This document shows positions 6,801 to 48,483 of a stretch of DNA of 64,000 nucleotides, piece by piece (the first letter of the stretch is position 1; each line of letters starts with the position of its first letter). The stretch comes from Marsupella aquatica (taxonomy: Eukaryota; Plantae; Marchantiophyta), in the NCBI GenBank assembly GCA_973895155.1, contig OZ316892.1:19197457-19261456 (forward strand). Direction: 5' to 3'. The notes beneath the pieces are model-generated. The model was given only the letters and a program-made list of their open reading frames with translations. It made no database searches and was not told the origin of the DNA. The position numbers and the translations under genes were made by a program.

Positions 6801-7795
6801 GAGAATTATCCTATGAGAGCTTTAATTTGCCTGTCATGAAGAAACAGAGAACTCTAAGAATGAGATCCTATAATTGTTAATTGTTGAGGTCTGAAGAACA
6901 GACAGTCTATCAATTGCAATTGAAACAAGGGCAAGCTTCAATTTGAGCACTTTGTGAGAGCTATTTGTTCTCACATTTTAAGAAATTTTACCAGACCAGC
7001 AAACACTCTGTGTAATTTAAACAATGAATCCAACAATGAGTTCAATAAGGAACAAGTAATGTATAAACCTGAAATGAATTTTGTAGACTCAAGTGCCCAA
7101 TCGAAGTCTAGCCTGGAAAGCGAAGAGTTGCTCCATGTCTCCCCTGTCGATGCAGCCCATCTAGCTTCGCAGATCTGCAGCCCATGTAGCTATCCAACGC
7201 TCTTCATGTCTATGGCAACAAGCTTGTAACAAGTATGAAGGAGAACTAGTTCAAATTGAATTTCAATCAGATTTGATTTAGGTTTGGGACCAGCACACGA
7301 CATTATTTCTGAAGCACTCACCTTTGTCGCAGAGTTTTTGCGATCAAGCCGGGCAGGTCGCAACGGCACTTAGAGTGGATGCCAAGCTTTTGCTATTGGC
7401 TGCATTCAGCACGACCAGTCCGGGTGATTTTCGATCAAGAGCTGAGAAAAGCTTCAGGGCCCGAGCTATGGCATCGGGGTCCAACAGCATTTTTTTGTTT
7501 GTGGCTTGGCTGGAGGCAGTCGCGAAACAATGCGGGGTCCGGGTGGAAAGAAGGCCGGGCCTGGGGCAAGCAGTCCGGTCGGCAGCACAGGCGCCCGGGC
7601 TGGGCGACCGGAAGGTAGGGGGGCAAGGGGTGGGGAGGAGCTGCATGCGACTGTGGCAGGCCCCTGGACCTGCCGCGCCAACAACCTCCCGCAAAGTTGG
7701 AGGCGAGGGCTGCGGGTACAGGCGCTCCGTGCCCCTAGCCACATGGAACCCCTCTCTTAACTACCCCCTCAGTATGCAGGGGTCGCTACCGTATA

Positions 7796-12657: not shown

Positions 12658-12980
12658 CACTAGAAGAATCCGAGGTGAACTGAGACCGCAATATATGACT
12701 CATTTTGGCTCATGTGACTTCATTGTGACTCAACGTGACTTGACCCACGCTGTGACCCTTGGAGTTGCAAAAGTTGAGACCAAAAAATGGAAGTCACTAT
12801 TGATACTGGGCTTTGCAACTTGCTTGATACCCATTTGTGACTGATCTGTGACTTTATTGTGGAGTCTAGCCTTGTTTCGACGTGACTGCAATATGACTTC
12901 AGCGAGTCACATCGTAAATCACATACATGACTTACCCGCATTCAACAACGACTAGCGTGTGACTATTTAGTGTCACAGGA
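12658..12980. repeat. CACTA subterminal repeats ((T)GTGACT / AGTCAC motifs in both orientations)
   Basis: Dense GTGAC(T/C) motifs at 12695-12975. Left GAGACCGCAATATATGACTC is mirrored by GAGTCGCATATTTATGAAGGTCTC near the right end (about 30828-30851). Confidence 0.8.
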
Positions 12981-13512
12981 GAGACCAATGGAGACCCTGG
13001 CCCGCGTCACACAACAGAACCATTTGGGACTCTATATACTCATGTTTATAACTAATAAGGATCACATGCAAGTTATAACCATGACTAATGAACACAGAGG
13101 GACAGTTCATAAGAAGAGAGAGCACTCGACATTACAATACATAGAAACCTGATGTTCTAACTTTAGAAATATAACACATTGAATACAAGAAATGAACATA
13201 GCATGAATGACATCCACATGAAACAAAGCATCATATAAGCAGATCCTACATAAAACATTCATAAGAATTAAACACAATCACAATCTTGCTAAAAAATGAA
13301 GATCATTTGAATTCCAATGGAATAGTTTACAATGTGATCAATGTAATTTAGACAAAACAGGAACTCATAATTGATGACTGTAGGATGAGATAACTGAAAG
13401 CACATGCATGATACTATGAATCTCCAAGAGGACATGATTCTTGTACTGTTTCTTGACATCTAAAATCTACATAACATGACTCGCACTACAAACAAATAAT
13501 GGCATGACATTG

Positions 13513-16500
13513 TTATGGATCCTCTATGAACTTGCTTGGCCATAATACCAAAGAACCTGCAGCATCTCCAAGTGTCTTTTGAGGAGGATCATCATTTGTG
13601 TTTGGAATGGGAAGGACAGCTTTAGGTTTCACTAGTAATGTGACTAACACTACTGAATAACCTGGGGGAATCCTCTTGCCATGGAACGTTGTGGAACCAA
13701 CCTGCACTCTGGCAAATCCTACTCGTGTTCCACTCTCATCAACAGCTAACAAGCCACTTTGTCCCTCAGCATTAGGTGCTTTCCCCACTTCCACCTTAGA
13801 TCTTTCTGCCAGCACTGTTCTTGGAGGTTTGTATGAAACCTTTGACGTGGCTCTGCTCCCACCAGCAGACTTGCTTCGTGTGCGCATGCTTCCTCTCTTC
13901 ACAGTAGTGAAGCTAGGCTCAGTAGGTTCCTCTGTTAGGACTGTCACAGTAGCAGGTTCATCACCTGGGAGTGTCATACCAACTAACTCTTTGGTTGGAT
14001 TTATCTCAACAAGAGGCACACCTGTCATTGAGAATGATACATTCTGCAAATCATTTATCTCTGCAATGGAGTCAAGATCTACATAGCATGAATCTGGCTC
14101 AATGGTATCATTGTCATGCTTGCTGATATCCTCATTTGCCCCAACATTGATATCATCCACTCCCTTGCCAATGTCATCCTCATCCAAACATGGTTGACTG
14201 CCCTCTGTCAAACAAGTTGCTTGTACAGACTGCAACTTTGTTGCCTCTAAATTACAGCGAGTATTTGCCAGGTTCTCATACTTCTTCTCTGTAGCACCTG
14301 TCTTATTCTCTATGGACACAACAACCACAATATATGTTACTGAAAATAACACATTCAACAAACAATGTCAATTCAAACTATACATTTAATAATCATATCC
14401 CACACAGTTGTAAAGGCCTTACCTTCAAGCCTACATGTCGTTGGCATGCCAGAAGAGTGCATCGACTTTGCCACCTCAAGTGGTGATGGTGGAACTCCTG
14501 CAGAATTGGAATCAATTTTATCTCTCACCGACACAACAGCTTCCATTAATGTCTTGAAGTTCACATGGAACAAGTCAGTCAATGAATTCAAACGTTCATT
14601 GATCTCTGGAAGACATGTTTCGACAGCCTTCAAACGACCACTTATCTCTGTAAGTGAAGATCCACCTCCCTACATGACACAGGGGTATAGGTTCAATCAC
14701 TCCATATGAAATGTTGGGCAATATATGCACAATCAATGTTATATACAGTGTACACCTGAAATTCAACGCAGGTCATTCAATTACCAATCAGAACTCATAT
14801 AACTTACATGCTTGGAGGATTCAGATGCACCCTCTTGAGCCCGGGTGTTCACAATTTCAGCCCTCAACTCTTCTTTTGAAGGGCTTTGCCCCAATTGGGC
14901 TTTCTGCACATGCATGGCAAACACAAGTTATCGATCAATATTCAGGGAACGTACACTAAAAAACAAAGTTTACATGTAGGGACAGTACACTAAAAAATAG
15001 TACATAGTGTAGCATAAATTACATAGCTAGGCCATTCATTCTTACCAAACGTTTAGCTGTCGGTGCAGTGCCGGTCCTTCCTGTCAGATTAGGGTTCTGA
15101 ACACTCAACCTGGCCTCGGTCATCTGTGAACTCTTCTTTTTTGAAGCATCTGTTACAAAATAAGCTACTAACCTTGCCCACACTTTATCATCACAACTGG
15201 CTGGTGGAGGCATATCTGGCTTCTCCCCACCTTCCTTCCAAGCCTTATGCATTCTCCACCTCTCTTGCTTGATAATTTTACCTGCTGTACTCTCTAGGCA
15301 ACCTATGTCCACGCCATCATCACTGCCCACATAATTCCATTTGGCAGCAACATTTTCACATACAGTCTTCCAATCTTTTGGATGCTGTTTTTTAAAATTA
15401 ATAACACTCACATCTAACCAACGCAATACTTCAGCTTTCAAATCAGCATGCCATCGGTTCTTGCGAGGACACTCAGCATCCACCCATTGTCTCTCATTCA
15501 ACTTTACGTTCCCTTTCTTTGTCACCTCCCCTCGTGCACTGCTCTCGGTAGTACTGGGCGTTGTATTGGCCACCCCTTCATTCACCCTACCTGGGGTTCT
15601 GAAGCCACCTGGGAAAATACAATGCCATTCATGCTTGAGAACTACATATAGCAGAATGGATGACGGCAACATTCAATGCTTCACTTCAAGAAAAATTCTT
15701 CAAACATACATACCTGTAGCTCTGCCTGTAGATGCCTGTGCAGGGACTGCACTCTGAAATTGTTGCGACCCTGGACCACCTGTCCAGCCTAGTACAGGGG
15801 CCGGATGATGTCACTTTCTAGGTATGTGTGTGCAAACATATGTACTGAAAACTAAGTACAAACTGTAGGAAAACAACTGAACATTCACCGACATACCTGT
15901 CCCCCTTCCGTGCTGCATCTGCATAGGGGCATTAGTGAATACTTGAGTCGATGGTTCGACTGTCCAACCTGCACACATACATTTTCTATCATTATACATG
16001 TGCAGAGTCCCCCCCACGTGAATGGACTCCACATATAATGAGTTCTTCCATTGCTGACAAGATCAGACATTACCTGCTCCTCTTCCAGCGTTTGTAGGTA
16101 CTGAATTTTGATATCCCTGCCAATTACCTTCACCACCTTCCCAACCTTGTTCATTCCACGACCCACCACCATCCTCCCAACCTGGTTCAACCCATGTCTG
16201 TCCTTGTGGACATTGCAACTGATCATTACTAGCATTTGCCCAATCAGGTTGGGCAGAATCTGCATGCAATGGCAGGTGGACAGAATTTCATGTTGTCTGA
16301 ATCCAATACATCCCAAACAATGTCAAAAATTGATATGCAGTCTGAAATTCAGGAGTGCCATGCCTTCACAAAGAACTGGCATATAGATATATACTCACAT
16401 CCCCACGGTTGAGGTGGACGTCCATACCCACGAGATTGTGGGTTTGGACCTGCTCTGCCTCTACCACGGGCATAACCTAGAGCTTGCCCCCTGCCATAGT

Positions 16501-17220
16501 ATTGGGCACCAGCCTGGGATCTACCACTACTACCACCTCGCCAACCTTGATCAGAGGTCAGCCCCCCCTGCTGGTATGGTGCATGCACAGGCTTCGAAGG
16601 CAAAACAGAACTGGCAGGACGCTGCATCACATCACCAACTACAATGTCAGGAACTAAGCAAGGTACATATGTGTAGTACTGAACATATGAAACCTCTAAA
16701 CAAGAGTTTTTAACTCAAAACCTTGTTGGGAAAACTACTTACATGTTTCTTTTGGGGCTGCTCTGCAATGTATTCATCTTCATAACCCCCATCCTCATCC
16801 ATTTCCTCTGGAAAATACTCATCATCTGCATCTTCTTGTCTAGTGTCTGCACCCACCTGTGCAGCATCAATGTCATCTCCACATTCTGCCATTGTAGGTA
16901 CGACCTTCTTGCTCAACCTGTCACTCCGACGCACAGGCCCAGAGATAGTGCTGGTCACCCTTCTTGCGTACTCCTTTTGTTTCTTTGAAAATGCTGTGGC
17001 TCTGCGACATTCCAATATGAGAATACAGTCACAATTTCAGTGCCACATTGAACTATTCATGTCACACAAACTCAGCGGAGGGGTGTAGTTGAGAATCGTT
17101 CCCTTACAATTCAGCCACATCCTTTTCCAGATCCAGTTCTGCGATTTTGGCTTTCACGTATGCTCGTTGTTCCATAGCTTTCCTTTCATACTCACACATC
17201 TCTGTGTCACTCTGTTCCAT
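13513..17220 (-). CDS. CACTA TnpA/ORF2-like multi-exon gene (exon boundaries approximate)
   Basis: Starts MEQSDTEMCEYERKAMEQRAYVKAKIAELDL. Several GT-AG flanked short exons. PTTA/Transposase_24-like core at 15019-15672 (PPASCDDKVWARLVAYF...KKKSSQMTEARLSVQNPNLTGRTG). C-terminal Tnp1-like motif FHGKRIPPGYSVVLV...LPIP...TLGDAAGSLVLWP at 13513-13720. Confidence 0.78.
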
Positions 17221-17376
17221 CCTACTGGACCACAAAAACATGTCATCTATGGTCACCCCGTATAACACAATGCAACCACAATCACCAGGCATCCATCCAT
17301 ACATCTGTGTTGCTTCAGAATTACTTTATTACACATCCTTCCCCTCACTAATGTCTATGCAAACAATTCACATTAC

Positions 17377-20300
17377 TCATGGCACAGGCACACTGTTGGC
17401 ATCTGCATCTCTGAATTCGCCTCCTTCAGCAAATGCATCTACCCTTGTCACAGGAATGAAGTCCCCGCTATCATGAACTACAGGCACTTGGTCTGAACGC
17501 CGACGATCAAAGGCACTATGAGAGTGTAAATGAAACTCAAGGTTTGATCCTTCCATCCGGCGTTGCCTGGCCTGTTTATGACACACTACACGCCAACCTG
17601 GGGAGTCTTCCACATCCAGGAAGAAAGCTTGCTCCACCTGACTAGGAAACACAAATGGCTCAGACCATTCGGGCAATTTCCCTCTGAAATTGGCCAGCAA
17701 GAAACCATCGTTGTCTCTCTTCATGGTAGCCCTGTTACCAAGCCAATCCTGCCGCACCCATGAACCTTTCATAAGAATCACAGGACTGGACACCGCCCCA
17801 TAGTCCAGAGCCCATATGTCAACTAATTCTCCCACATATCCCATCTCCATCCAGGCCCTGTCGTGATTGTGGCTCTGTTGCTCAAATACAGTGATGAGCC
17901 CGCAGTCATTCGTCACCCTGTAGGCACTGTCACCATCCTTCACTCGGAAGTGATTCCCATATGCTCTCATCCGTTTGTAAGTCTTCACTTTCAGGCTAGG
18001 GGCATTAGACAGTAGGTAAACATCTGCATCCATGTCTGGGTGGGTCTCGTGATGCTCTCTAATTGCCACTCTGATCCACTCCATGAAACCTGGAAAAGTT
18101 GTTCCTGCAGTGGGATGGGCCGCCTTCAATGACTCATACTCCCTGAACGAACAACCACACAGCATTAGCTTGGGTAAACATGAACAGGCTGAAGGAGAAA
18201 ACCACACGAACACAACATTTAAGCTCATGAACTGGATTATAGCACATGTATGCACTCACTGTATCCAGGGTTCCATCACCACAGTGTTGTGCAATACAAA
18301 GTCATGTGCCAAGTCTCTCATAGATATGGTCAGGTTCTTTGTGGTTGCAGCCCCTTCCAGTACTTCACCTACCACCCCTTCCTCCTCATCAGAATTCCAC
18401 ACCCTGGTCTTCACATGCTCATATTGTGCTATGTATTCGGTCAGAAATCCCAGAGTCTCATCCTTGATGTAACCTTTAGCCATGCTTGCTTCAGGTTTGT
18501 AATATGTTCTCACGTGACCTTTGAGTAGCTTCATGTACCGTTCCAAAGGGTACAACCAACGAGCACTCATAGGCCCAAATTGGTGTAGCTCTTCCACAAC
18601 ATGGACAAGTAGGTGGGTCATGACATCAAAAAATGCGGGAGGAAAATAAATCTCCAGGTCACACAGCACCTGAGCGACATCTTCTATCAGTTGTGGGAAG
18701 TGTGTTTCATCCCAAACCTTCACACAAATACGACGAAACACATCACTGAGTCGCATGATCACAGTACGAACAGGCTTCTGCAACAGGCCCCTCAAGCATA
18801 AAGGCAACACCTGTTGCATCAACATATGGTAGTCATGGCTTTTCATACTACCAAGCTTTCTAGTCATGATATGCTTCTTGAAAGCACTGCCATAGTTTGA
18901 AGGAACCTTCAAAGAACTCAACCTCTGCACAAATAGTTCCCACTCTGTGTCTGTCAGAACATAGGGCGCTTGGTACTTCAAGAGCACATCAGCTCTGTGG
19001 GCATGTGGCCTCAACCAAAGATGGGGTTTCATTCCCCTCTGTTCAAGATCCAATCTCACTGAACCAGTGTCTTTCTCTCCACACAAGAATCTGAGTAGAC
19101 TCTCACAAATATTCTTTTCAATGTGCATAACATCAATGTTATGTTTGCTTGGCTCAAACTCCTGCATCGTTGCAATGCAAAAGCGTCAGGAAATGCCTCA
19201 AGTTTAGTCTCTCTCTTCGAAATGAATGCACATGCTCTGAACCAAAACATGTATCCCAATTAGCATCAACTCCAAGAGGCTTACCCTCCAGTACTTGAGC
19301 TCCAAGTCCAATATGCTCAGTCTTTTTACACCATATCGCTTTATTGGATCACTCACTCCATCTTCCCTGCCCCCTCGTTTGATATAGTCATCCCTCAGTG
19401 CTCCCCACTGCCTGATCTCCTCTTTGGTCACTCGTGCCGGGGGTCCACGTTGCTCAATCTCATTGCCAAAGTGTGCAATCAGTGCCTGTCTTTCTCTGTA
19501 AGGGTGATCTGTCTTCAGAAAACGACGATGGCCCATGTATATCACTTTCTGCAGGGCTCTGGAGTACTCACTGGTGACATTGCGCCCACAGATAGTACAA
19601 GCACAATATCCTTTTGTTGTTTGGCCTGATATCATCCCATGGGCTGGGTAGTCAGCTATAGTCAGAATGACAATGGCTCTAAGGATGAATGGGTTTAACC
19701 TCCCAAGCCTCTGTAGGACATCATATGTGAGAACTCCTTCCTCCCAAAGCTTTCTCAATTCCTCCACTAGGGGAGCCAGAAACACATCTATGTTGGCAGA
19801 TACAGCACTGTCTGGCCCTGGTATCAGTAGGACCATCAGAACAAAAAATCGCTTTGTAGTCATCCAAGGAGGAAGGTTATAATTCAAAATAGTTACAGGC
19901 CAGCATGAAAATTTGTTGTTCTTGTCTCCAAATGGGTTTACCCCATCCAATGACAGCCCAAGTCTGACATTCCTCGGCTCAGCAGCAAATTCGGGATACA
20001 TCTCATCTATGAGTTTCCATTGCCTTGAATCTGCAGCATGTCGTTGTAGCCCATCATCACTTTTCTTGTCAGTTGCCCAAGTCATCATCTCCGAGATGGC
20101 ACGGCTTCTGAACATCCGCTGAAGTCTGGGAATGAGTGGAAAATGACGAAGTACCTTGGCGGGAACCATAGACTTTCCTGAGTTCCGATACCTGTGCTTC
20201 CCACACTTAGGGCATGTCAACGATTCTTTATACTCCTTTCTGAAAAGAACATGCCCATCAGGACAGGCATGGATCGAATCATAGTTCAATCCAAGATTAG

Positions 20301-21108
20301 ATATGCATCTTTTTGCCTCGTACATGTTCTTGGGCAAAATATTACCATCTGGTAGCACAGTTGTTCGCAAGAATGCCAACAACTCAGAAACCAAAACGTT
20401 GGGGACATTGTGGTTGCCGCAAATGTTCAGGAACATGATGACAAATCCCAGTTTAGAACATTTGCTACCGGGGTACAAAGACTTCCTGCCTTCCTGTATT
20501 TGCAGGGGAGAGCCAAACATCCCATCATGCCCAGGGGTTTCCTGCCCTATCTCAAACTCATCAAGAGGCTCTTCGACAGGGGGCACACTTGCATCTGCAG
20601 CCGTATCCTCTTCATTGTCCAGCCCATCATGAAATGCATCCAAGTCTTGGAAGATGTCTCTCACCATCTCTTCCACATGAATTCCTTCGTCACGTGGTGC
20701 TGCCTGAGCACCATCCCGTTGGAGAGCTGACAACCCACAGAGACCAGCTACAACATTTTCAAATGCACCAGGCAGAACCTCACTTGCCCGTCTTGCAGCA
20801 TTGGCAGCATCAAATTCTAACCTCCACTCCTCGTCGGAAGAATCTTCCTCTGCAGGATCATTCCAAACTCGATGTCGTGGATCTCTTCCATGAACCGCGA
20901 TATGCCGCCAAACCTCATTCAGACCCCTGGTACGGGATCCTTGGCAGATTGCACAAGGACATCTCATCCTACTGGCTCCTGAAAGTCTGGTTCGTAACCT
21001 TTCACGCTGCCAAAGCTTATTATCATGGCGTGATATCCTTGTGGGATGATGCAAAGGCAGTGCCTGTGCCCTGGGCTGGGTCTGGGGAGGGTGGTGACCA
21101 GGGTGCAT
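17377..21108 (-). CDS. CACTA TNP2/TnpD transposase, 3 exons (21108-19285, 19161-18260, 18142-17377), about 1163 aa
   Basis: N-terminal CPCAIC; IHACPDGHVLF...CPKCGKHRY; LRHFPLIPRLQRMF; RNVRLGLSLDGVNPF; ADYPAHG; YMGHRRFL; DVMHIEKN; MKSHDYH; FPPAFFDVMTHLLVH; RWLYPLERYM (DUF4218); EPFVFPSQVEQAFF (DUF4216). GT-AG introns join in frame with no stop. Confidence 0.93.
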
Positions 21109-21541
21109 TGTAACAGGCTGGGAGCTCTGCAGTCATGGACAGCAGTGAACAAGGATGCCTAATGGTGGTATTTGTGTTCCATATATCCCTGACTGTATCT
21201 GCCAAAAGAGTTAACATAACGTGTACTAAATTCTCACAAACCCTAAACCACCCCAAAAGAAAAAAACAGGTTCGCAAGTAGTGTACCTATTGTCAAGTGA
21301 ATGACACAAAATTTCTAAATGTTGGAGGGTGTCACCACCTCCTCCGCTGTCCTCAAATGTACCGCCTCTGCATGTACGTTTACAGTGACACCCCCAGGCA
21401 GCAGGAAACAACAATCCGCCAACAGTAAAATAAGCCCAACTGCCACCAACCATAACAAGGTACATTAGTTCAAAGATCACATTTATTTCAATGATCTGAT
21501 TTATACAAAAAAACTTGTGTCCAAACTGATGCTACTACTCC

Positions 21542-22420
21542 TCACTCTGATTCAGAATCGCTAATGACCCATTCCTCACTTGTTGTCTCATAGTCCTCTC
21601 TGTAAGGATCCTGACCCTTCCGTGGCCAGGCCTCAAAAAGATCATAGTCCATTGGGTTTTGACGCTTCCCAGCTGCTACTGATTCCACAAGCCAAGCATA
21701 TGAAACCACAAACACATTATGGGACATGACATAAAAGCGAATGTCTCCCTTCCCAAACTTGCGGCAGGCTTTGGGATATGACTTAGTAATGACATGAGTG
21801 GTGTCCTCTGTTATATTCTCCTCCACTGTCCCACCTAGGTCAAGCACTGTGGACTTGTACACTTTGCACTTAACCTCTCCAATTCCCGCCTCCACAAATA
21901 CCATGCTCAGCCCTTTCAGAATGGGGGTTGGTTGCTTCGTCTCCTCAGCCAACATACTCTTCAGCCTTGTAGAGCTCTGTCCTTTGTTGAGTACAGGTCC
22001 ATATTAGAGATCAGCAAGCCGTGCCTTTGCTTCCCAGACTTCTTGTTCAGCCCAAGCTGATGCAGTAGCTTCTTCATCCTCCCACAACTCATATTGCTCA
22101 GTATCCTGTACAATCTTATGTGCTATGGAATCTGTGATCCAAGAGGCCTCAACTACTTTTAGGCCTTGCTTAGTAATTGCAGAATTCATGTAGGACCATG
22201 ACCACTTCTTTATCACTGATAGCCATGTCCCTGCAACAACATGTGTAGTCTCTGGAGTGATGTCCTGAACTACAGTGCCATGGAGCTCAGAGAATCGTTT
22301 CTGTACAGTTGGCCAATGCACTTTGGTCAACCCATGCTGGCCATGGACCAAAATCGCTCTGACCCCTGTAAACACTGCTGGGTGGTCACACTTTCTACGT
22401 TTACCAGGCTCCATGTACAC
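21542..22420 (-). pseudogene. Tandem BRCT-domain ORF (DNA polymerase lambda-type BRCT x2) with a single in-frame TAA
   Basis: ORFs 22004-22420 and 21542-21955 are in the same frame, separated only by TAA at 22004-22006. Each has BRCT hallmarks (F/L-x-G-V/L, GG/HG-TV, TTHVV/TTHVI, W-I/L-x-D/E-S, Y-x-L). Confidence 0.85.
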
Positions 22421-23007
22421 ACACCCTACGTGATGACAGTGAATTTTGGAAGAATGGGTTCACCTGACAATACAAGGACAACAAAATTCCTGCTTTTTGA
22501 GTTGATCTGGCCCACTGGTGCTCAGGTCCGATTTTGATAGGTACAAGGGATATGTCACACAATACGTACTAGGCACCTGCACGGATGCAGGACATTGTTT
22601 GAATATATACTACAAAATCCATATCCGTGGTGAAATGAAGTGCAACCAACTTGTCATGGCACATACATATTTTGTTGTAAAGGAGGATACATTCAATGAC
22701 AAACTTATAGGGCAATTTGATTAATTGCATGCCTGATAATTTATACGCTTACAACTTAGAAGTCCTGTTTTAATTTAGCAGTGTGATGAAAGTGTTTATG
22801 AAAATGACCACTCAGCCTAAATACTTCCAAGAAGGCTTGTAAGGATAAGTTTGTATAGGCATGTACCCAGCCACTGACGCCAGAGCACAAGATAAGTGCT
22901 GCCTATATAAACTCGCCTACCCAACTCCTTTTCAAAATTGGAATCTCTGCAATCTCAAAAAATAGTACATCCACATCAGGTGCACTGTGCATGTACAATG
23001 TTCAGCT

Positions 23008-23688
23008 TCACAGCCAAGATATGTGATCTCTCACAGGAGTGCGCGAGGTAGGATCAATGGCATGGCGATGACAATAAAATATCCATCGATCAACACCATG
23101 TGCAGAGTGATCATAGATTTCTCTGTCACAAGCATAACCCTCTGCTTGATGATCTTTCAGGCAATGATAGTGCCACATAGTGGGACACCTAGCACAGTGG
23201 ACTATGTCAGTCCAGTAGTCATCATCATGCTCACCACATGCCTTGCACCTATGAAGTGGGCAAGCTGTGGCATGAGCAGGCAAACACTCAAAACAGAAAA
23301 ATCTCACACAAAAACGGTCTGGACATTTCCTAACATTTGCTGCAGCATCAACAGAGCCCTCATAGGACCCCAACTTCCCACACTGTGCACACTTAGCCTG
23401 CTTCTCCAAACAATCAGTGCACATCCAGTCTCCCTGGTGTGTTGACGGGAGGCCCACCCCTGGACAGTTGTTTTCTGCAGCAAGGTCAGACTCCGGGTTG
23501 AGGTGGAAATGCCTCATGCAAGGGCCCTCACAAATGACCAGGCCCCCACCATCGTCACAAATGGCACAACAATGAGCTGCCTTCTGGAAAATCTGACTTG
23601 CAGAGAAGTTAGTAGCATCTGCCCCAAGTACACCTGTGTTTCTCACCTCTGTCACACGCTTTTTGGCTTGAATTTTAGGCCGTGCCAT
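23008..23688 (-). CDS. EDM2-type composite PHD finger protein (stand-alone), 226 aa
   Basis: CAICDDGGGLVICEGPCMRHFH...WMCTDC...CAQCGKLGS...CPLHRCKAC...CARCPTMWHYHCL...IFYCHRHAIDPTSRTPVRDH. Order and tail match the PHD region of plant EDM2 as I recall it (CAICDNGGEILCCEGSCLRSFH...CPLHKC...CRRCPKSYHRKCL...IYCQEHEIDEELLTPVRDH). Intact ORF with a basic N-terminus. Confidence 0.88.
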   Translation of the reverse strand: MARPKIQAKKRVTEVRNTGVLGADATNFSASQIFQKAAHCCAICDDGGGLVICEGPCMRHFHLNPESDLAAENNCPGVGLPSTHQGDWMCTDCLEKQAKCAQCGKLGSYEGSVDAAANVRKCPDRFCVRFFCFECLPAHATACPLHRCKACGEHDDDYWTDIVHCARCPTMWHYHCLKDHQAEGYACDREIYDHSAHGVDRWIFYCHRHAIDPTSRTPVRDHISWL

Positions 23689-23699
23689 GCCTGCGCATG

Positions 23700-23843
23700 A
23701 GATAGACTCTACAATTTAGCAGACTGCACAGAAAGTAATATATATTTAGCATTTAAGGTACAAAGGCATTTAGATAGACTCTACAATTTAGCAGACTGCA
23801 CAGAAAGTAAAATATATTTAGCATTTAAGGTACAAAGGCATTT
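23700..23843. repeat. 72-bp tandem duplication just upstream of the PHD ORF
   Basis: AGATAGACTCTACAATTTAGC...GGCATTT at 23700-23771 and 23772-23843, one mismatch. Confidence 0.95.
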
Positions 23844-24458
23844 GCTACTGCAATGAATTGGAATGGCCACACAAGGATGCAGAGCACACATACTTTTGGT
23901 ATGTTGAGCCCACACACAAAACTGATCCCCTAATACAATTTCTCCACCAACACCTCAATTTTAATTGTGGCTATGATTCACCAAAGGAGATCTGCAACAA
24001 CATTTCATGCATTTGAATCACATACAATAGTCGTGACATGTAAAACAGGCATTCTTCGAAGAGGATTGGTATGAAGCAGTGTCATAAGGGTTGAAATTTA
24101 TACATCCTAAATAGGTTATGATAGTGGCTGAGACAAATAAGTGAGGCATAAATCATTTTGCATATTATCACATGGCCCATTAATTCATTCAACGTTGCAA
24201 TGTTCACCAGGTTAAAGCAGTCATGAAAGCAGTCTTTCAATAGAGACTTTTATGCGAGTTTGCTAGCCTCTTAAATTAGGATATTTTGCTTAGTGCAGGC
24301 ATAATAGGATATAAGTTATATACTGTTGACCCTAAACCCTGGACCCAAAATTGCTCATACATCAAAATTTTAAGTAAATATCCTCTGTGTTGAAGTCAGA
24401 GTGTTAAGCTATAGGTCAATGGTATCTGGTCTGTGCATGCGGTGTGACAAGTGGTCCT

Positions 24459-24908
24459 CTAGAGCATGTGATCCAAACATGTGTAGACACCAAAGTCACC
24501 GGTGGTGGGGTCTGGGAGGGCAGGACAAGTGACATCACCAGGCACACTGCAGGATGGCGAGTGGTTCCAAATGATACATTGTGCTCTATGCAAAAATCGG
24601 CATCCAAGAGAACGGTCATCCAATTCTGGGCCAGAAGCCCTACAGGCAGGACAGTCATATTGGCAACTGTGTACACACCCTTGGCACCTAATTTGTGGCG
24701 GGTCATGTACAAGAGACACAAATACCAAGGATGTCGGGAAGGGTACTGAAGCAAGTAGAGGCCGGCTGTAGTTGTTCCTGGAAACAACAGGGTACTCAAA
24801 GTACCATGCAGACTGGGCTGGAAGGATCCCAAGTCTGACATACTCAAGGCGCAACATCTCTGCCTTGCGTGCAAGTCGCACATGTTCAGCGTTGCGGGTC
24901 CTCACCAT
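24459..24908 (-). CDS. Hypothetical Cys/His-rich (putative Zn-binding) CACTA accessory protein, 149 aa
   Basis: ATG-initiated and co-oriented with the other cargo ORFs; contains CQGCVHSCQYDCPAC...CRFLHRAQC...TCLDH. No family recognised. Confidence 0.45.
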   Translation of the reverse strand: MVRTRNAEHVRLARKAEMLRLEYVRLGILPAQSAWYFEYPVVSRNNYSRPLLASVPFPTSLVFVSLVHDPPQIRCQGCVHSCQYDCPACRASGPELDDRSLGCRFLHRAQCIIWNHSPSCSVPGDVTCPALPDPTTGDFGVYTCLDHML

Positions 24909-25903
24909 AAGTGTTGCTTTTGTTGTGATGTCCTCTGTTCACGTCCTTTGATGAGCAAGGTGAGCAGGAGGTCGACTTGCCTCGCCAACAGCAACCACCT
25001 AAACTAATCAGTTCCCACTCAACTACAGGTCATAGTATACACATAGCATGAAACGTGCATAGTACATATTTGATTCTGAGTTTATGAGTTTCCTAAGACA
25101 AAGAGCTTGGTGATAAACCCATATTCTCGATGGACATGTATATCAATCGTATTAAAATCCTGTTTTTTCATCCAGAAAGACCGAAAGTCTCACCTTGCAG
25201 GTTGCAGCAGAGAGAAAATTCACTGGTTGTCGTGTTGTGCAAGTGAACCTCCACTGATGCCCCCGGTGTAGCCCCTCAGATGCAGGTGACACTTACCAAC
25301 TCCCAAGTTGCCTGGTCTAACAGAAAATGCTTATATCTTCAGAACTTTATAGAGCAAGTACATGATCACATACTTCTGGATCTATTCATATTTGGAACTC
25401 TTGCCAACTACAACTCCCATTATGCACAAGCTCACATCAACAGAGAAAAATACAGAATGCATACTTACTATGGCTCTAAGCACCTTCACTACCTTGTTGA
25501 ACCCAGTCCTGAAGTCTTTTCAGCGTGTTTGTTGTGCTGTCTCCTTTGGCACCCAACACCTTAGTCCTTGATGTAACAGAATGCGATTTTACAAGTTAGA
25601 TGCTTTGGAACCTTCTATGGTCTTAGCTGAATTGATGTCATCGTAAGTGGTGAAAGACAAGGAAGACGAAAGCTGGTTGAAGAGCTGTGGACAACACACT
25701 AGCATGAAGTGCTTCAACCAATCCACTGCCAAACGGAACTCTTACACAGTCACATTCTTTCAGTAAACAGAAACTCAATCAAACTTCATAATCAAAGTAC
25801 AGACTCTGAAGGACCAAAGGAGGATGTTGTGAGTTTCTCTGTTGTTTAATGTGTTACCCTTCTAGTTTCGAAGTTAGCAAATGCTGAATAATGTGTCTAC
25901 CAG

Positions 25904-26243
25904 ATCTTCGAAAAGAAGCCCACCACAATTAAGAACTTTGGTATCTGGGTGAGGTATCAGAGTTGTACAGGTTATCCCAACATGTACAAGAAATATTGTG
26001 ATACCACATTAAACAACCACACAGCAGATGTATGATGAGATGGCTTCTTGTCATAGAGTTCGGTTCCCTTGCATCCAGATCATCAAGACTACGACAGTCC
26101 CTGTCTCTCTGTGCAAGCGAGAAAGTACCAAGCAGTTCCATGATTCAAAGATCAAGTTCCCCTTGACGTACCGCAAGATTCAACCTCCATCGCGAAAGCT
26201 AAAGACGACTTACAAGGCCACCAAGCCCAACACATTTGTTTGA
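25904..26243 (+). pseudogene. RPL18A: Captured last exon of 60S ribosomal protein L18a (eL20), frameshifted
   Basis: After acceptor CTACCAG: [37 protein letters not shown], then a frameshift near 26015-26025, then [22 protein letters not shown]...[18 protein letters not shown]...[19 protein letters not shown]. This is the plant RPL18a C-terminus. Upstream exons are absent. Confidence 0.93.
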
Positions 26244-28082
26244 GTAGTGCGGGTGTAGGTTCCCAATTTTGAAACAATTTGGCTCATTTTATGTCCCGAG
26301 GGACTCCAGGAGTTTATGTATTGAGTTTCTAGGTCAAGATGCTTAATATAAGGAAATTCAATTATCACCTCGTTCCCAACTTCTATTAATTGAATATACA
26401 CAAGCTGGAAGCAAGAAGACAAGCCACAATCTAGCATCTTAGCCAAACACAATCGTCCCGACAAAGCAAAACTCAGCTGGACAGAAGTCACTCGGATCCA
26501 CAAAAAATTGAAGATTCACCTCCAAGCCGGAGGCCGATCACTTCAGTACAGCAGCTTCTGGACGGAACAAACTCTGCTCAGCCCCACAAAAACACAAATG
26601 TTAAGGCTCCAAGTCAGAGCTCACAAACAGAAACTCAGATAAATAACATTCAAAATCTGTCCAGGTTTGTGCAAAGTGTACATATTCATTCTTCTGGAAT
26701 GAACACGCAATGCATACATCGCCTAGACACAGTCATTATAAATCATTGGGCAATTGGGGACCACTAAGCAGGTGTGTTCCTATTTCGAGGCTACAAGAAA
26801 GGATAGAGTGACACCAAACTGAAGAGTACACCAAAAGAAAAACAGCAAGAACCAAAGTCAATAATGTGTGGATATTTTGCACATGGGAAGTTCCCCTGAA
26901 GAAGCACCAGTTGCTAACATTGTCACCCGAACCACACCCAGTTTATTACCTCAATGTCTTCAGCCTCAATATCCAATCCTCAGCCCCCTGGTGCTTCCGT
27001 GTTTGTTCTGAAAATTTCTGTGATGAAATAATTATTCAATACATTCAATAGCAAAGAGAACTCAATCACAAAAGAAAAATAGTTAGTGTGAATGCTAATT
27101 TCTCAACACTTAACTAAATTCAAACCACCAATTCAAGTAGTAAGTTTCAAAAACTTGCCTTTACATGAAGAGAAACCAATTGGCCATGCATGTTACTAAA
27201 GCAATAAACAAATAATTAGGCTCAACCCCGGGCTCAACACACAGGCAAACTACTCGAAACATGCTGCTGAGAAGTAACATTTTTTGAATGTCAGACTATG
27301 TGTAAGTGCCATGATCGTGCTCCTACGTTTCACAAGGAGGGCTGGCCCGAAAGGGAGAAGCAACAATGTGGAGTCTATACACGTAGCACAAATCCCAGTT
27401 TAGAAGGGTGGATGAAGTTCAGACAAGAGTTCAGAACTTGCCATTTGAGATTGCCAATCTGAACTTCACATTCAGACAGGACTTCATCCAGTTCAGGAGT
27501 TCAGATAGGAGTTCAGACAATCTGAAGAGGACTTTGGACTTGAATGAGGGACAGCGTGGCCATATAGTTATCCTTGTGGCCTTCAGCTGCGTGTCTCAGG
27601 CTGAATTTCACTTTCCAGTTTCGAGAGTTCTGAAGGTCTAGTTTTAGTAACTTCCTCCTGACTCGACTTGGGAGCATTCTCCCTATTTGCTAGCTTGTAG
27701 TTAGCTTTGACTCCTGTGAGCTTAGTTGACGACCCTCTTGAGATATTAACAATTAGAACAAACACAAGTTGTCAAGACAGATTCCACCGGAGCAAAAAGT
27801 CCAAAATCAGGTGAAAGAAAACCTAAGGAAAGTCCATAAGAACGAAAGTAGGAAGGCAGGTGCACGGGCCACCGAGAAAAGTAAAGGATGCATGTGATTA
27901 GTGGGGAGGGATCTTAGCAAAAATAGGGGAAAGCAAGGGAACTTGCTGCTAAAATCAGCTGAACGATTGCACGGTTCCTATAAATTTAGTGGACCTTAAG
28001 GCCGTCTGTTCAGCCCCCCACCCCATTGCCAGAGCACGGGGCACAAGGCATGTTCTGATACAGGGAGGAGCAAAACAGTCAT

Positions 28083-29128
28083 GTCAAGCAAGAAATGTGG
28101 AGAGACCAATCAGTAAGCAAAAATAGGGGAGAACATACATACATGATCAGCAGCAGCAGGAAACAAGAAAGATGATTTTGGGTGGCATCTTAGGGTCGGG
28201 GACACCACTGCAACACCGGGACTTAGGATATGAGTTGTTCTTAATCTGCTAGTAGCATCCGGCAGGCCGGCGACCCATGGCAAAAGGGCAGAGCAACAAT
28301 CCGCTAAAACTACCGAGTCTCACCTTTGCGCTACTGACTGTCACCTTTGTCCAAGGTAGCTAGTAATAGCAAGTTGAAGTCCCGCTCCAAGTTGTCGGCT
28401 TCCACTCCAAGCTCCCTAAAAGATTGTGGCCTCAGGTCCAAGTCGTTAGCTCGCACGCGCAACTCCCTAAACCTACACACAGCGGAAGCTTAGCTCACCA
28501 ACAACTTGCAGAAACAATGACCTCCCCTCTGAAACTGATAAAAACACCTGAATACAAATAGTGAAGCACGAGGACAGAACAGGGAGAAGCGTTTTGCAGT
28601 TTGGGACGACAATGCTAGGAGTGTATACACTTCGGGCAACAGGGAGGTCCAATAATAGTTTGAATCTGACGGATGAAGCTCTAGGCGAATGAGCTCCAGG
28701 AGATTGGGTGCATGATTGAGTAGGCAATTGTAACAGCAGGCACCTGGCGATTGAAGGAAGCAGCATTCGGCAATGGACCTAGGCAGCTCGCGAATTTTGC
28801 TCAGCAGCGATGTCACCTAGACCCTAAACACGCAATGCATACATCACCTAGACAACTATACTTGCAGCCACGAGGTGAGTCCGCGATAGGGGATTGAAGG
28901 AAGCAGCAAGTCAAGCAAGAAGCGTGGAGAGACCAATCAGTAAGCAAAAATAGGGGAGAATAGACATACATCAGCAGCAGCAGGAAACAAGAAAGATGAT
29001 ACTCTGTTCCATCTTAGAGTCGGGGACACTACTGCAACACCGGGACTTAGGATATGACTTGTTTTTAAACTGGAGATAGCATCCAGCAGGCCGGCGACCC
29101 ATGCCAAAAGGGCAGAGCAGCAATCCGC
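28083..29128. repeat. ~220-bp dispersed direct repeat inside the CACTA (about 28083-28305 and 28910-29128)
   Basis: GTCAAGCAAGAA..GTGGAGAGACCAATCAGTAAGCAAAAATAGGGGAGAA...CACTGCAACACCGGGACTTAGGATATGA...GGCCGGCGACCCATG.CAAAAGGGCAGAGCA.CAATCCGC is present twice. Confidence 0.9.
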
Positions 29129-30904
29129 CATGTAGCGATAGGCGAGAGCAGCGATTACGACGATGAAAGATGGTCAAAGCTGAAGCAAAACCCCTAAAGA
29201 TGCAGCTTGGCCATACTCTCTTTCCTCACCTCATAGCGCTAGGCATTCAACCTCCCTCTTCAATGAACCTCACAACAGCTTGAAGGTCGATAGATTTTAC
29301 CTCGTCTCCTGAGCAGAAACGTCTGCATTAGCTAAACAGAGCCCGGAACAGAGCTATCGCATTTAGCCTCCCGACTCCAAAATTGAACGCAACACAACCT
29401 CCAACTCCCAATGGCAGCTCAGTAGGTTGATCAGCTCGGTCAATGCAGGTCAGTCGACCTCAATAGCCACACTAGAAGCTCACCGCAAGTCACTCAAAGG
29501 TCAGACTAGAAGCTCCGCCGCCTTCACACCGTAGCAAAAAACAATGAGACCAATATCGAGCAAGGCGACCCTGTTTGAATATTTGGCGACCATCAGGCTC
29601 CACCCCTCCTTTCTCGCTACCGTTCCCCCATGTGATGGTTAAGCTTCTGAGGACACAATCAATCGCACAAATGTAGCTTAAAGCAGGACCTCACTAAGCA
29701 GACTATTGGTTAGGACCTTATAGACATAGAGATAGATAGGTCAATGCAACCTTACTTGGGCCGATGCAGCATGTCTCTTCACAATGTGAAGCAGCGCAGC
29801 ATTCCTCCACCTAGCTCGCAATGATCCTCCGCCTTGCTTGCAGTAACCAGCCTCCGCCTAGCTAGTTTGCACTGTCACGGCTGCAACTTTTTGTGCAATG
29901 ACTTGGCCCTCCTACCAACTACGAGCTCCCAAAAGTATGTCGAGCAGATGTACACTCAGGCACCACCTCGTAGAGCTCAACTCCAAGTCGGCAGCTCTCA
30001 CTTGAAACTCAATAGCAGCTTAGCTCACCAGCAGGTTGAAAAGCGACAATGGACTCCCCTCAAAACTGATTGGCAGACCTCCACACTGACGCTCGTAGCA
30101 GGCCCAATCCTAAACACATTTGCACCCTAAAGTCCAGTCGCGCTCAAACACTTTCAAACGACCCTGCAGGAAGTTCGCGAAGAGTGCAGCTGGAATGAAG
30201 GTCGTCGACTCCCAATTTCCCTCGCAAAACCAACCTCTGCGGCACACTGACCCTGAACACTTAGGGCAAGTAGTACCCCCAAAATCTCTCGCAAAACCAA
30301 CCTCCAAGGTACACTGACCCTGAGGGAAAGTAGTACCCCTCACATGTGGGCAGCCATCGAGTGACTTAGCAAACAGGTTGGTTTGGACATAAAAGAACCA
30401 ATGCAAATGACTTAGCAAAAAGTTCAATGTGGGGAGAGTGCACTTTGGTCAAGAACAAGGCCAAATATAGTCAGGTATGAATCCACATTATAAGTGAAAG
30501 TACCCACCATTCTGATGAAAACCCCCATATTTATACCCATTATATTTGGACTTATTGAACCATGAGTGTGCAATATGTAGTTGCACCGGGAGTTGCATAT
30601 TAGGGATTGGCATCCGAAATTGGCTAATGGGGTATGCATGCTGACGGAATTTTAAAAAATGATGTCCAATTCATATTGCACTATTGTGGAGTAACTAACA
30701 TAACTTACCTATTTCTTACTTACTAGTGTTACAATAGCGACATTGGATAAAGTTGTAAGCATGACTTCCCACAACCTCACCAAAACTTAGTTGGTATGAT
30801 GTAACTAACATGACACCCACAAACTTGGAGTCGCATATTTATGAAGGTCTCGCACAAGTCACATAGGGGAGGGTCTCAGAATGGGTGGTTTTCTTCTAGT
30901 GCTT

Positions 30905-33583
30905 GTAGATCTTATCTCCACCCTCTGAAGGACTGTCCTTCAACTTGTAAATCCACTTGCTGTCCACCACTTGCTGACCTCTTGGAAGCTCCACCAGCTC
31001 CCATATCTTGTTGTCACTCAAAGATTGCAATTCCCTCTGCATTGCTGCATTCCACTCATGCCTCACTGTATGAAGAAGGTTCTCCTTCTTCCAAGATCAA
31101 AGCCTTGTCATCATCATCAGGTGCAATGTCAATATCATCTAGCTTAGATGAGTCTGCCCATTGACCATACCTAGTAGGAGCTCTAGTAGAACGACTGGAA
31201 GTTCTTCTAGATGACTCAGGCTAATCTGCTGCTGTTGCAGGTTGAATTTGAGGTACCTCGGCAACAATCTGCTCCTCTTGTTCCATCATAAGAACCAGCT
31301 CCAAGCCCGAAGCTTCTCCATCTCTCCTTCCATGAACAGCATCATGACTAATCTCCCCCTCAACCCGATCCGGGATGAGAGATTTTCCCTTGTCAGTATG
31401 GGAGTCCTGAGAATTCTCCCTTTCCTTTGATGATCTGGATTCATTAAAGGACACATCTCTACTGACAATTAGTTTACAGGTTACTGGATCGCATAACCTA
31501 TAACCCTTCACACCTTTTTGATAGCCAAGGAAAATGCACTTCTTTGACTTGGACTCTAGCTTGGATCGAAGTTGGGAAGGTGTAAGCACATAAGCATCAC
31601 ATCCAAAAATCCTCAGATGTGAGTAATCTGCTAGACGCCCGTACCTCATTTCAAATGGCGTCTTTAATCCAATAGAACTAGATGGAGAAAAATTTACCAA
31701 ATAAGCTGCAATATTGACAACTTCAGCCCAAAACTCATGTGGTAAGCATGATTGACTCAACATACTCCTCGAGCGGTCCAACAATGTTCGGTTGAGTCTC
31801 TAAGAAATACCATTCTACTGAGGAGTATAACTTGTTGTGAGATGGCGGGTAATCCCCTACTCCTTACAATACATTCCAAATTCCATGGAACTGTATTCAC
31901 CATCGTTATCCGATCGAAGATATCTCATCTTATTACCAGTCTGATTCTCAACTTGGGCTTTCCACTCCTTAAAAGTGGCAAAAACATCAGACTTATTGTG
32001 TAGAAAGTATATCCACAAGAGTAATCGTCTATGAACGTGACATAGTATAATCATCCAGAATGTGAGGGAGTAGGGGCTGGACCTCACACATCACTATGTA
32101 CATACTCAGGTACCTCCTTGCTGGTGTGAGTTCCAACTCCGAAGGGTTTCCTGTGCTGCTTCCCTAGCACACAGTGCTCACAAAATTCCAACTTACAAGA
32201 TTGCAAATTAGAAAGTAATCCTTTCTTCTGAAGAATAACCAAACTTTTTTTACTCATGTGGCCCAAACAGAAGTGCTAGAGCCGGGCCGTCTACTCATGA
32301 GATAAGGTTACATTGGCTTCATCACAGACTACACTGTCCTCCAAAACGTATAGATTGCTAAATCTCTTTCCCTTCAATACAACTTTAGTACCAGTTGAAA
32401 CCTGAAGGACACCATTAGCAGAACTCCACTGATGGCCATTTGCTTCTAAAACTCCAAGTGAAATGAGATTTTTCATCATGCTAGGAATATATCTCACATT
32501 CCTCAACGTTCTTACAGCACCATCAAACTGTATCTGAAATCTTACAGATCCAAGTCCAACAACTTGACATAGGATTCCATTTCCCATCAACACTGAACCG
32601 TTAGAATCTGTGTAAGAACTTAAAAAATCTCTCCTAGAGCAAATGTGAAAAGTACATGCACTATCTAGAATCCAGTCATCATTACCTGGATTTGACACTA
32701 CGTTGAGAGCATAACCTTGACATCATAATATGTCATCATCATCGAGTAAATCTACCTCATGCGAGCTCGATGCTGCATTAGCAGAGGCAGTAAGGACCTT
32801 TACTCAACAATCCCTTTTCACGTGGCCAGGCTTGCCACAATTCCAACATGCAAGAGGCTTCCTCTCTTGTGATTTCCCCCTGGATTTAGATCTCCCCCGT
32901 GATGTAGATCTAAACCTGTTCTATCCATTTGAGCGTTGCGCTGCTCTCCCCTGGTTCACGTTCAGTGTAGTGCCAGAAGAAGATGCTGTCTATGATTGAC
33001 CCAGCTTCTTCTGAGCATCATCAGACAATAAAGAGCTCACCACCTCATTATACGAAATGGACTTCAGATCTCTGTACAAGAACACTTGTTTCAAGCCCTG
33101 ATATGATGGCGGTAAGGAGCTTAGCAGAAGCAAGGCCTTATCCTCATCTTCAACTCCTTTTCCCAGGTTTGACAGATCCACCGCTAGATTATCAAATTCA
33201 TCCAGGTGATCCTGCATCTTGCTCCCTTCCTTGAGCCTGAGGCTCATCAAGAGAGACTTCTTGTACAGCCGGTCTGACGCATCTTCCCAGTAGTACTTCT
33301 TTCTAAGGGCCTTGAAGAGTGATGCACAGTCGTCATAATCATCCAGTTTCTTGATGATATGCGGCTTCAGATAAAGCATCACTGCATTAACAGCAATCAC
33401 CTGCTCTTGTCTCCACTGCTTCACAAAAATCTCCTCCTCTCCATCATACTGCTATCGCGATGAAAGCAGATGAGCTAAGCCCATGGCCTGTAGAACACCC
33501 TTCACTTGCTTCTCCCACAGCAAGTAATCAGTACGACCATTGTATTTTTCCACCTCAAACTTCACTCCTCCAAATCTAGCCAT
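30905..33583 (-). pseudogene. Copia gag-protease-integrase region with stops, frameshifts and deletions
   Basis: gag start MARFGGVKFEVEKYNGRTDYLLW; LLLLSSLPPSY; zinc knuckle CWNCGKPGHVKRDC (about 32805-32850); protease WILDSACTFH; HHCC remnant GHMS...CEHC; integrase LRSDNDGEY, FWAEVV, FGCDAY, KCIFLGY, SRDVSFNE. Confidence 0.93.
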
Positions 33584-35245
33584 CTCCCTCTTCTTCCCTA
33601 CTAGCAACAGCTCTGGTAGTAGTACAGCTTCCTCCACTGCACGCCGCACCAGTGATTGTACCGGTGTTACAAGTTCCTCCTCAAACGGTAGTAGCTCCTC
33701 CTCAGAGTCACCGTCTGATTGTCGCGATTCTGAAGCTCCACCGACGCCAATTCTTCCAGTATCCTTCGAGTCACTCATATGAAACAATCACGAAAAAACA
33801 TCTTTTTTTGAAACTTCTCACAAAACTCAAAACTCAACACCGCCGCGTAGCCAACAAAGCAAGGAATCCAATACTGAAAGCCAAAATCAAAATCAAAATT
33901 CGACGGAAAAGTTATTCAAATTTTGGTCGGGGTGGGTAAAACCTTGGAAAACTCCCCCGTTTTGACCACCTCGGAGAATAACCAAAATACCCAGTACAAC
34001 CCATCGTCGGAATCGCAATGTGATCGGTGCATCGCATTGCTAACTCCAGTGGCAACGTCCTCACCAAAAAAGAACCAAAAAAGTTACCGTTTGGCAGATT
34101 GAATCTTTGTCGGACGACCAAAAAATAGCTCTATGTTTTTCAGGAATATTCTCGTACAATCCGATAGGTCTCATAGGGGGCCGTTCCCCTTGTCGAAGCG
34201 GTTAAAACAGAGGGTGGCAGGTCCCGACATCAAAGAGAACAAAGAAAGGGAAAAAAGAGGCAAAAAAAGAGGCTCTAAAGGGGGTACTTAGTATCCCTTA
34301 AATCTAAATACACCCCGTATGGGGTCGGGGATCCAAAAAGACGATTACAAGGCGTGTACCCGGGCGGCTGCGTACGCAGCCGCGTACACATGAAAAAAGG
34401 CCGGGGTTTAATTCCAGAGCGAGGGCAGGCGGCCGGCAGGAGCATAGGGTGACCGACATGTCACAAGGCCGCGAGGAGACGCGAAGGGGCGGGGGGGGGA
34501 CTATGCCCGAAATGTGTATACACAACAAAAATATTACCCTAATGTAACCCCAAAAATAATGTCGTTTAAAAAGAAAGCCGGTTACACACCTAAACCGCCG
34601 CCATTTCCAACGAGTAAAATGAATGCAGCCGACGGTAAATGTTGCCAAATTTCACCGACATAGTCTGCCGCTTCAGCTGAGTAAACAATTGCCCCCGCGT
34701 CGCCTTCAGTCCGCATCAAGTGCCAATCCCGGGCTCAAAACGACCGCGTTGCCGCGATCAAACTGTTGAGCCGTAGCACTTCGCGTCTCTTCCACCGAGT
34801 CGGACGTCACAAAGAGAAACCCGGTTCAGATGGGAACAAGCTCTATAGCTTGTGAAAAAACCTAAACGCCTCCTTCACTCGTCACGACGCACTCGGTAAC
34901 AACTTGGCAGCAAACCAACTACCAAAACGACCAGCTCGCTTCAACCTTCAACTTGAGCTATAATGTGAGATCCCTCCCACACCACACAACTTACACCGTT
35001 GAAAAACACAAACTCTGGTCTCTCCCTTGAAAACCGTCGAACACAAATAAAACCTGAACGACGCAAACTTCAATTCCTCCGCACCACGGATACCGATCAG
35101 CGAGTTCTAACCACCGTCGCCCTCTCACTAACCTATCCGCACAGCCACACACATTTGAGTTTCATGTGACGGAACTCCAAATGTGCCACCGACAATGAAT
35201 GCTGGAAAAAACCGTCACAAAAAAACCTCGTCACCTCCCAGGCAT

Positions 35246-48228: not shown

Positions 48229-48483
48229 TGCAAATGAGGGCATTCAGTCTCATACTTGCAATCCATCACGTTTACTATAGGACTAGTTTGCGGGTTAGCA
48301 GCCTCCAGTACATTCAAGTCTTGAATGGAACTCATAATATTATACCCTCTTACCCATTTTAAACAGAATACCCACCATGTAGATGATGGTATTCACAGTC
48401 AACCTGCCCTCCTTCAGTTTGGAGAAGGACAGCAAAGTAAACAAGCTATCTAGAATTTAACCACCACCCTAGAACCCATTAAA

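Follow-up and report, generated by a model that had tools for sequence, protein, structure and literature searches.

An EDM2-type triple PHD finger gene beside a twin-BRCT gene in a plant CACTA transposon: a possible chromatin-adaptor cassette

EDM2 is a host factor that handles transcription through heterochromatic transposons. PMC7529245 names an RFD, acidic stretches and a methyltransferase-like (ELP) domain among its domains, and further EDM2 literature includes PMC9292364 and PMC10241880. On the transposon side, the known plant counter-silencing factors, VANC and TnpA, work via DNA sequence and DNA demethylation. According to PMC13547354, En/Spm TnpA has co-opted a domain of a heterochromatin regulator, and accessory proteins can derive from chromatin regulators. 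Both this co-option of host chromatin domains by En/Spm and the fusion of PHD fingers with transposases are already known.

The gene studied here lies in a stretch of 64,000 nucleotides (64 kb, hereafter the window), the content of which suggests a plant host (Table 1). Translation of the minus strand from 23688 to 23008 yields 226 aa followed by a stop, starting with MARPKIQAKKR and ending with IFYCHRHAIDPTSRTPVRDHISWL; the plus strand of the same interval is interrupted by a stop. The product contains 22 Cys and 16 His, and 24 zinc ligands make up three complete fingers between residues 41 and 209, bearing out the original prediction of a 226-aa reading frame with a basic start and a Cys/His array. 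Directly before the ATG lies an AG acceptor-like site (predicted 5' intron). The observed/expected CpG ratio within the ORF is 0.25, a depletion that fits a methylated history or methylated chromatin.

Pfam returns weak matches to three NSD-like PHD models, and the best single-finger match is AIRE PHD1. Finger 1 retains the D[DE]GG-L-x-C-[DE] strand and the G-x-W-x-C pocket, presumably as in H3-binding PHD fingers such as AIRE PHD1. AlphaFold2, run on a 17-row alignment, predicts residues 1 to 26 to be disordered and gives a mean pLDDT of 79, with PHD/PZP and NSD tandem PHDs as the closest folds, at modest scores. This confidence, the PHD-type best folds and the five homologues of the first search (217-245 aa, 37-82% identity, E 1e-36 to 1e-130) lift the assignment above chance. 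When residues 27 to 226 were modelled in complex with an H3 tail of 31 residues encoded on a viral contig, controls not folded, the prediction scored 0.50, 0.09 and 0.05 in its runs (median 0.09; mark 0.34). Judged by its sequence, the product is likely a histone H3-tail reader. Beyond the basic N-terminus and the three fingers the protein contains nothing else, and Pfam recognises no DNA-binding domain in it.

Table 1. Features of the CACTA element and of the Copia retrotransposon that hosts it (positions within the window)
Feature	Position	Strand	Basis and remarks
Host Copia retrotransposon, reverse transcriptase and RNase H side	11264..12657	minus	Pfam/ORFs
CACTA (En/Spm) element, 18,244 bp, carrying the PHD ORF	12658..30901	minus	TIR/TSD scan, empty site
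3' TIR CACTAGAAGAA	12658..12668	plus	TSD CTT at 12655-12657; clustered GTCAC/GTGAC subterminal motifs next to it
TnpA-like multi-exon gene	13513..17036	minus	Transposase_24 match and ORF pieces; position fits
TnpD transposase, three exons open	17377..21108	minus	predicted GT-AG introns 19284-19162 and 18259-18143
Twin-BRCT ORF, 290 codons, basic N-terminus	21542..22414	minus	next to PHD ORF
Stand-alone EDM2-type triple PHD ORF	23008..23688	minus	226 aa, single exon, basic N-terminus
72-bp tandem duplication	23700..23843		just upstream of PHD start
Third candidate accessory ORF, 149 aa, Cys/His-rich	24459..24908	minus	status uncertain; many contigs cover it
Frameshifted intron-free fragment, ribosomal protein-like	25900..26246	plus	in 5' part of element
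5' TIR CACTAGAAGAA	30891..30901	minus	TSD CTT at 30902-30904
Host Copia retrotransposon, gag to integrase/SH3 side, in-frame stops	30902..33787	minus	Pfam/ORFs

The carrier of the PHD ORF shows the features of a CACTA element: CACTA-type TIRs, a 3-bp TSD and clustered subterminal motifs. The scan for CACTA ends returned a single pair (12658 and 30901), with an 11/11 match between the TIRs and a CTT/CTT duplication. The empty site is represented in contigs of runs X1, X3 and X11 (organisms coded A, B and H), which join 12654 directly to 30902; the 18,247 bases skipped at this joint correspond to the element plus one duplication. The element interrupts the Copia retrotransposon between its integrase side and its reverse transcriptase, and no LTR pair of this Copia was found across the window. 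The Copia itself is ruled out as the carrier, since the ORF lies inside the CACTA ends. The original prediction of a transposon-borne gene thus gains exact CACTA ends, and its placement of this copy within a retrotransposon is amended: the CACTA carries the gene and in turn sits in the Copia. Along the minus strand the order is ∼6 kb of variable 5' sequence, the 149-aa ORF, the PHD ORF, the twin-BRCT ORF, TnpD and the TnpA-like gene, so that the PHD ORF is on the same strand as TnpD/TnpA and upstream of both. No Rfam family was found within the element and no tRNA in the 64-kb window.

Other sequences were recorded in the variable 5' part and elsewhere in the window. A 225-bp direct repeat (28080-29128, 88% identity, ∼825 bp apart) in the variable part is possibly a nested element. 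Outside the element, a Harbinger-type transposase (5355-6821, minus, DDE_Tnp_4) faces a partner ORF (4054-4917, plus), presumably Myb/trihelix-like. A 480-codon open frame with no Pfam match (39380-40822, minus) contains an internal 42-residue duplication; 46042-50511 (plus) contains a LINE ORF1-like frame with DUF4283 and a zinc knuckle and, after it, a frame of 588 codons with no Pfam match, and 52828-53487 (plus) holds a probable thymidine kinase first exon (Pfam TK match, 23 residues).

The transposase genes of the element are recognisable. TnpD matches Transposase_21 (E 2e-70) and DUF4218 (E 6e-27) in Pfam, its two predicted introns preserve the frame, and three motifs are present that we take to be the D, D and E sites of CACTA transposases. 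The Transposase_24 match on the TnpA-like gene is below threshold (E 1.5e-4, 22.3 bits, under the Pfam cut-off of 28.7).

Adjoining the PHD ORF is a twin-BRCT ORF that the original inventory of the element overlooked. In this ORF and in two relatives, a pair of tandem BRCT stretches is recognised, with E values between 2.6e-13 and 1.4e-15. The ORF contains one stop (22004-22006), where every contig of X1, X3 and X11 that spans the site has a sense codon; the twin-BRCT gene is therefore intact in other copies of the element. Intact relatives of 294 and 295 aa (60 and 54% identity) are unnamed. Weak matches connect the protein with the BRCTs of Rtt107, BRCA1, ligase IV and microcephalin. A Ser-Gly position, presumably equivalent to the phosphoserine pocket of BRCA1 BRCT1, differs among the three twin-BRCT sequences aligned, and the pocket residue is not clearly retained. 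A PHD-BRCT fusion protein was also considered and, rare splicing aside, rejected: the stop after DHISW is conserved in the PHD family, and the BRCT relatives are separate proteins (294-295 aa).

The 149-aa ORF has no Pfam, PDB or profile match, and its single-sequence model reaches a pLDDT of 37. By eye only, its ligand spacing is PHD-like, and in runs X1 and X3 a larger number of contigs falls on its bin, as on the PHD bin, than on TnpD. The fragment at 25900-26246 resembles what we take to be ribosomal protein L18a, and its intron-free state suggests a captured mRNA copy.

The window, or part of it, was found in 11 sequencing runs of nine studies, one of which runs may be the window's own source; five hold at least half of its words. 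The 13 runs listed include no RNA run. In run X1, the main contigs reach depths of 1,554-1,950 over TnpD, the BRCT-PHD spacer and the 3' part and of 340-950 in the 5' part; depth is not copy number, so these values establish no more than the existence of many similar copies. Both the PHD gene and the BRCT gene are a property of the element family, not of this copy alone. No small indels occur in the PHD ORF among the rows listed (12 of 14); three internal skips are each confined to a single contig, and there are gaps in some pieces. Synonymous changes account for 6 of the 11 variants listed in the PHD ORF, with 21-27% expected (p 0.015-0.047), a weak test that rests on 11 sites from the rows listed (40 of 202). 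The BRCT ORF shows no such excess (2/8). At 85% likeness, run X9 covers TnpD and hardly the PHD bin, and run X7 covers the PHD ORF far deeper than its flanks, depths that in neither case are interpretable.

The PHD protein belongs to a family of short proteins. At least 19 short relatives, unnamed and with about 29-82% identity, were found: besides the first five, the best 150 rows of a profile search contained 15, some of them assigned by eye and one already present among the five. Seven of the 19 are full or nearly full length, and 12 are partial or end midway. Across eight homologues, zinc-ligand positions are identical in 187/192 cases versus 611/1,252 at other positions. Start and stop positions are conserved, all 11 members examined have Cys in place of the finger-2 His together with a 7-residue gap, and the family forms one clade (support 100/99 in a 39-row tree). 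The single clade and the retention of 187 of 192 ligands indicate that the family has been kept as a protein under selection. That the gene is a passenger, a piece of host sequence multiplied along with the element after its capture and of no present use to it, is accordingly quite unlikely. The ribosomal protein-like fragment in the same element, the many broken family members and the bias of the searches toward intact ORFs all agree with a passenger, but ligand conservation on ∼30-40% background identity, together with the family-wide His-to-Cys swap, the fixed gap and the conserved start and stop, is a pattern that neutral decay cannot give.

The surrounding DNA was inspected only in this element and in copies nearly identical to it; the distant relatives may lie in CACTAs too. 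NCBI and UniRef contain no record for any of the eight family clusters queried. A metagenome scan returned 11 loci, all outside the short family: transcripts of grass-like EDM2 and of short EDM2-like genes, and PHDs of unrelated kinds. In a viral scan, none of 42 candidates belonged to the family.

Several features tie the module to EDM2. The top long matches of the family profile are EDM2-like proteins with both RFD and PHD, a combination confirmed by Pfam, some of them named ENHANCED DOWNY MILDEW 2. The finger-1 loop has 12 residues here, compared with 8-13 in 17/18 EDM2-like proteins and 2 in 6/6 NSD-like proteins. The C-terminal YCxxH...TPxxDH motif is found in this protein, in 7/11 family rows and in 17/18 EDM2-like proteins, but in 0/6 NSD-like ones. 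These hallmarks uphold the EDM2-type module that had been proposed, and a plain NSD fragment is rejected by the same loop and motif. The same three-finger array, with its long finger-1 His-to-Cys loop and its C-terminal motif, occurs in the EDM2 module of Arabidopsis and of relatives in Marchantia, Riccia, Selaginella, Diphasiastrum, Ceratopteris and Zizania (27% identity for the Zizania protein). Among solved structures, the best matches come from the PHD1-3 module of NSD1-3, both by sequence (NSD2 E 2.8e-13) and by fold (NSD2 tandem PHD, Z 5.3, rmsd 2.6, 75 residues); no solved EDM2 PHD is among the PDB matches. The protein lacks the SET and PWWP domains of NSD-like proteins.

The departures from EDM2 are equally consistent. 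The RFD, the methyltransferase-like (ELP) domain and the acidic stretches are absent from the 226-aa ORF, in which Pfam finds PHD only, in line with the earlier view that EDM2's other domains are lacking. The finger-2 His and the long EDM2-type insert are missing throughout the 11 family rows, and the second finger is shortened as had been noted, with 7 residues between ligands versus 13-31 in 18 EDM2-like proteins (6-24 fewer). The 15 residues before finger 1 contain 0-3 acidic residues in the family, compared with 5-8 in ten full-length EDM2-like proteins. The reading of H3K9me2 suggested for the protein at first was carried over from Arabidopsis EDM2 and finds no support in a family lacking both acidic flank and finger-2 insert. 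The module, going by its sequence, is of EDM2 type, and the protein itself is not EDM2.

Phylogeny places the family on a long stem (1.05 changes per column) at an unresolved base beside algal and streptophyte EDM2-like clades, and next to the NSD-like outgroup at only 74/49; a 144-row quick tree, with nine fragmentary or repeated rows left out, agrees. In five AU tests, with groups picked after viewing the tree, grouping with fern or seed-plant EDM2 is rejected marginally (p 0.040 and 0.039), whereas grouping with liverwort short proteins (p 0.158), liverwort EDM2 (0.104) or lycophyte EDM2 (0.069) is not. A recent capture from fern or seed-plant EDM2 is thereby marginally rejected. The family forms its own clade and is not nested in these two EDM2 groups. 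It seems to stem from an EDM2-like gene that was captured long ago or has evolved fast, an old capture being its probable origin.

Short EDM2-like genes are also annotated in hosts (rice, e.g. Os03g0266600, wheat, Eleusine, Miscanthus and liverworts), likewise encoding PHD fingers without a methyltransferase-like domain; a stand-alone module is therefore not unique in itself. Liverworts and grasses each have a clade of such proteins (P0016, P0019, P0021, P0027, P0032, P0062; L002-L007). The grass proteins have a conserved GxxGWxxD tail and a basic start resembling that of the transposon family. The PHD protein scores 114 bits with the liverwort short clade profile, 105 with EDM2 and 77 with NSD-like proteins, and one member of that clade shares an F-S-x-x-E-V-N-type flank with the family. 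It is nonetheless very doubtful that the short family consists mainly of host genes, one of which this CACTA recently picked up. Such an origin would fit the annotated host genes, the grass ones also turning up in the metagenome scan, as well as the AU result for the liverwort short grouping and the fact that this clade's profile scores 10/11 family members above the EDM2 profile. Against it stand the lack of records for the eight clusters, the separate clade, and the many broken members and single-exon build, which fit repeats. The annotated host genes differ from the family in greater length and in retaining both the His and the insert of finger 2, and the family does not group with them in the best tree.

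The reading preferred here, put forward tentatively and rated a little short of probable, is that the PHD protein serves as an H3-tail-reading adaptor for the element's TnpA/TnpD on silenced chromatin, with the twin-BRCT protein as a link to repair. A cargo gene of the CACTA family would supply a protein with three EDM2-type PHD fingers, whose basic N-terminus would direct its nuclear import. The fingers would read H3 tails on silenced nucleosomal chromatin and dock the TnpA/TnpD machinery there, and the twin-BRCT protein would connect the transposon cut to host repair factors. The partnership with TnpA/TnpD is suggested by the consideration that a reader without DNA-binding or catalytic domain could serve its own element selectively only via that element's sequence-specific proteins. 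H3 binding is predicted from the finger sequences; the loss of the acidic residues that precede finger 1 in EDM2 may have altered or abolished it. In favour of the reading are also the place and strand of the ORF inside exact CACTA ends, its conservation as a protein, its CpG depletion, and the H3K9 methylation that Arabidopsis Spm elements retain under TnpA activation (bioRxiv 10.64898/2026.08.24.746577); the poorly retained BRCT phosphoserine pocket counts against it. With the twin-BRCT neighbour, the picture broadens toward a chromatin and repair adaptor cassette.

Two further explanations keep closer to the host factor. In the first, which is unlikely, the protein mimics EDM2: it would bind H3K9me2 over the element and recruit AIPP1/ASI1, and TnpD/TnpA transcripts would thereby reach full length instead of being polyadenylated early. 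The EDM2-type module and the distance of the transposase genes from the element's 5' end (10-17 kb) agree with this. So do literature statements: EDM2 is a binder of H3K9me2 at TEs that favours transcripts of full length (PMC7529245) and increases COPIA4 transcript levels (PMC3632883), and H3K9 methylation stays at TnpA-activated Spm elements in Arabidopsis (bioRxiv 10.64898/2026.08.24.746577). Yet the protein has none of the EDM2 parts outside the PHD and lacks both acidic flank and finger-2 insert, the DNA transposon Mu1 is repressed by EDM2 (PMC3632883), and the twin-BRCT neighbour would stay unexplained. The second explanation, a bare reader that takes up the histone marks or partners of EDM2 as a decoy and weakens host silencing genome-wide, is improbable. 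A reader stripped of effector domains would be the usual dominant-negative build, and loss of edm2 de-represses Mu1 (PMC3632883). However, a gain common to all transposons would be hard to keep under selection, and a competitor should track its target, whereas the family is far from every EDM2 sampled, as its long stem shows. The most far-reaching reading, which is rather unlikely, describes a CACTA lineage with its own chromatin toolkit assembled from host parts: a trimmed EDM2 reader supporting both the long transcript and the transpososome in H3K9-methylated chromatin, and a twin-BRCT protein handing cut DNA to repair. This would be the first transposon known with dedicated readers of both a histone mark and a damage mark.

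Among known systems, a stand-alone EDM2-type PHD or BRCT cargo gene in a CACTA was not found in the literature covered, which lies outside subscription journals, supplements and Repbase, and the form found here, in which the triple PHD and the twin BRCT each have their own gene next to TnpD and TnpA, appears undescribed. The words 'PHD' and 'BRCT' occur nowhere in the main text of PMC13547354 or of bioRxiv 10.64898/2026.08.24.746577. As described in PMC13547354, VANC of VANDAL and En/Spm TnpA (with an NDX-B-like domain) are also element-encoded helpers co-opted from host chromatin regulators. They are sequence-specific DNA-demethylation factors, whereas in the PHD protein no DNA-binding domain is recognised, and its gene comes in addition to an apparently normal TnpA. 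A PHD is likewise carried by the DNA transposons Rehavkus and Ginger1-9_HM, in their transposases (PMC6446971 and PMC2836005); there it is a single finger, fused to the transposase, in animals, and here it is a separate triple-finger EDM2-type gene in a plant CACTA with a twin-BRCT neighbour. Compared with EDM2 itself, the protein is without RFD, methyltransferase-like domain and acidic flank, is transposon-borne and forms its own clade. If the proposed role is true, a histone-reader gene taken from EDM2 would represent a counter-silencing route different from that of VANC and TnpA, and through its twin-BRCT partner transposition would be coupled to repair signalling. The module, with its 200 residues, would offer a natural minimal version for dissecting what the PHD of EDM2 reads.
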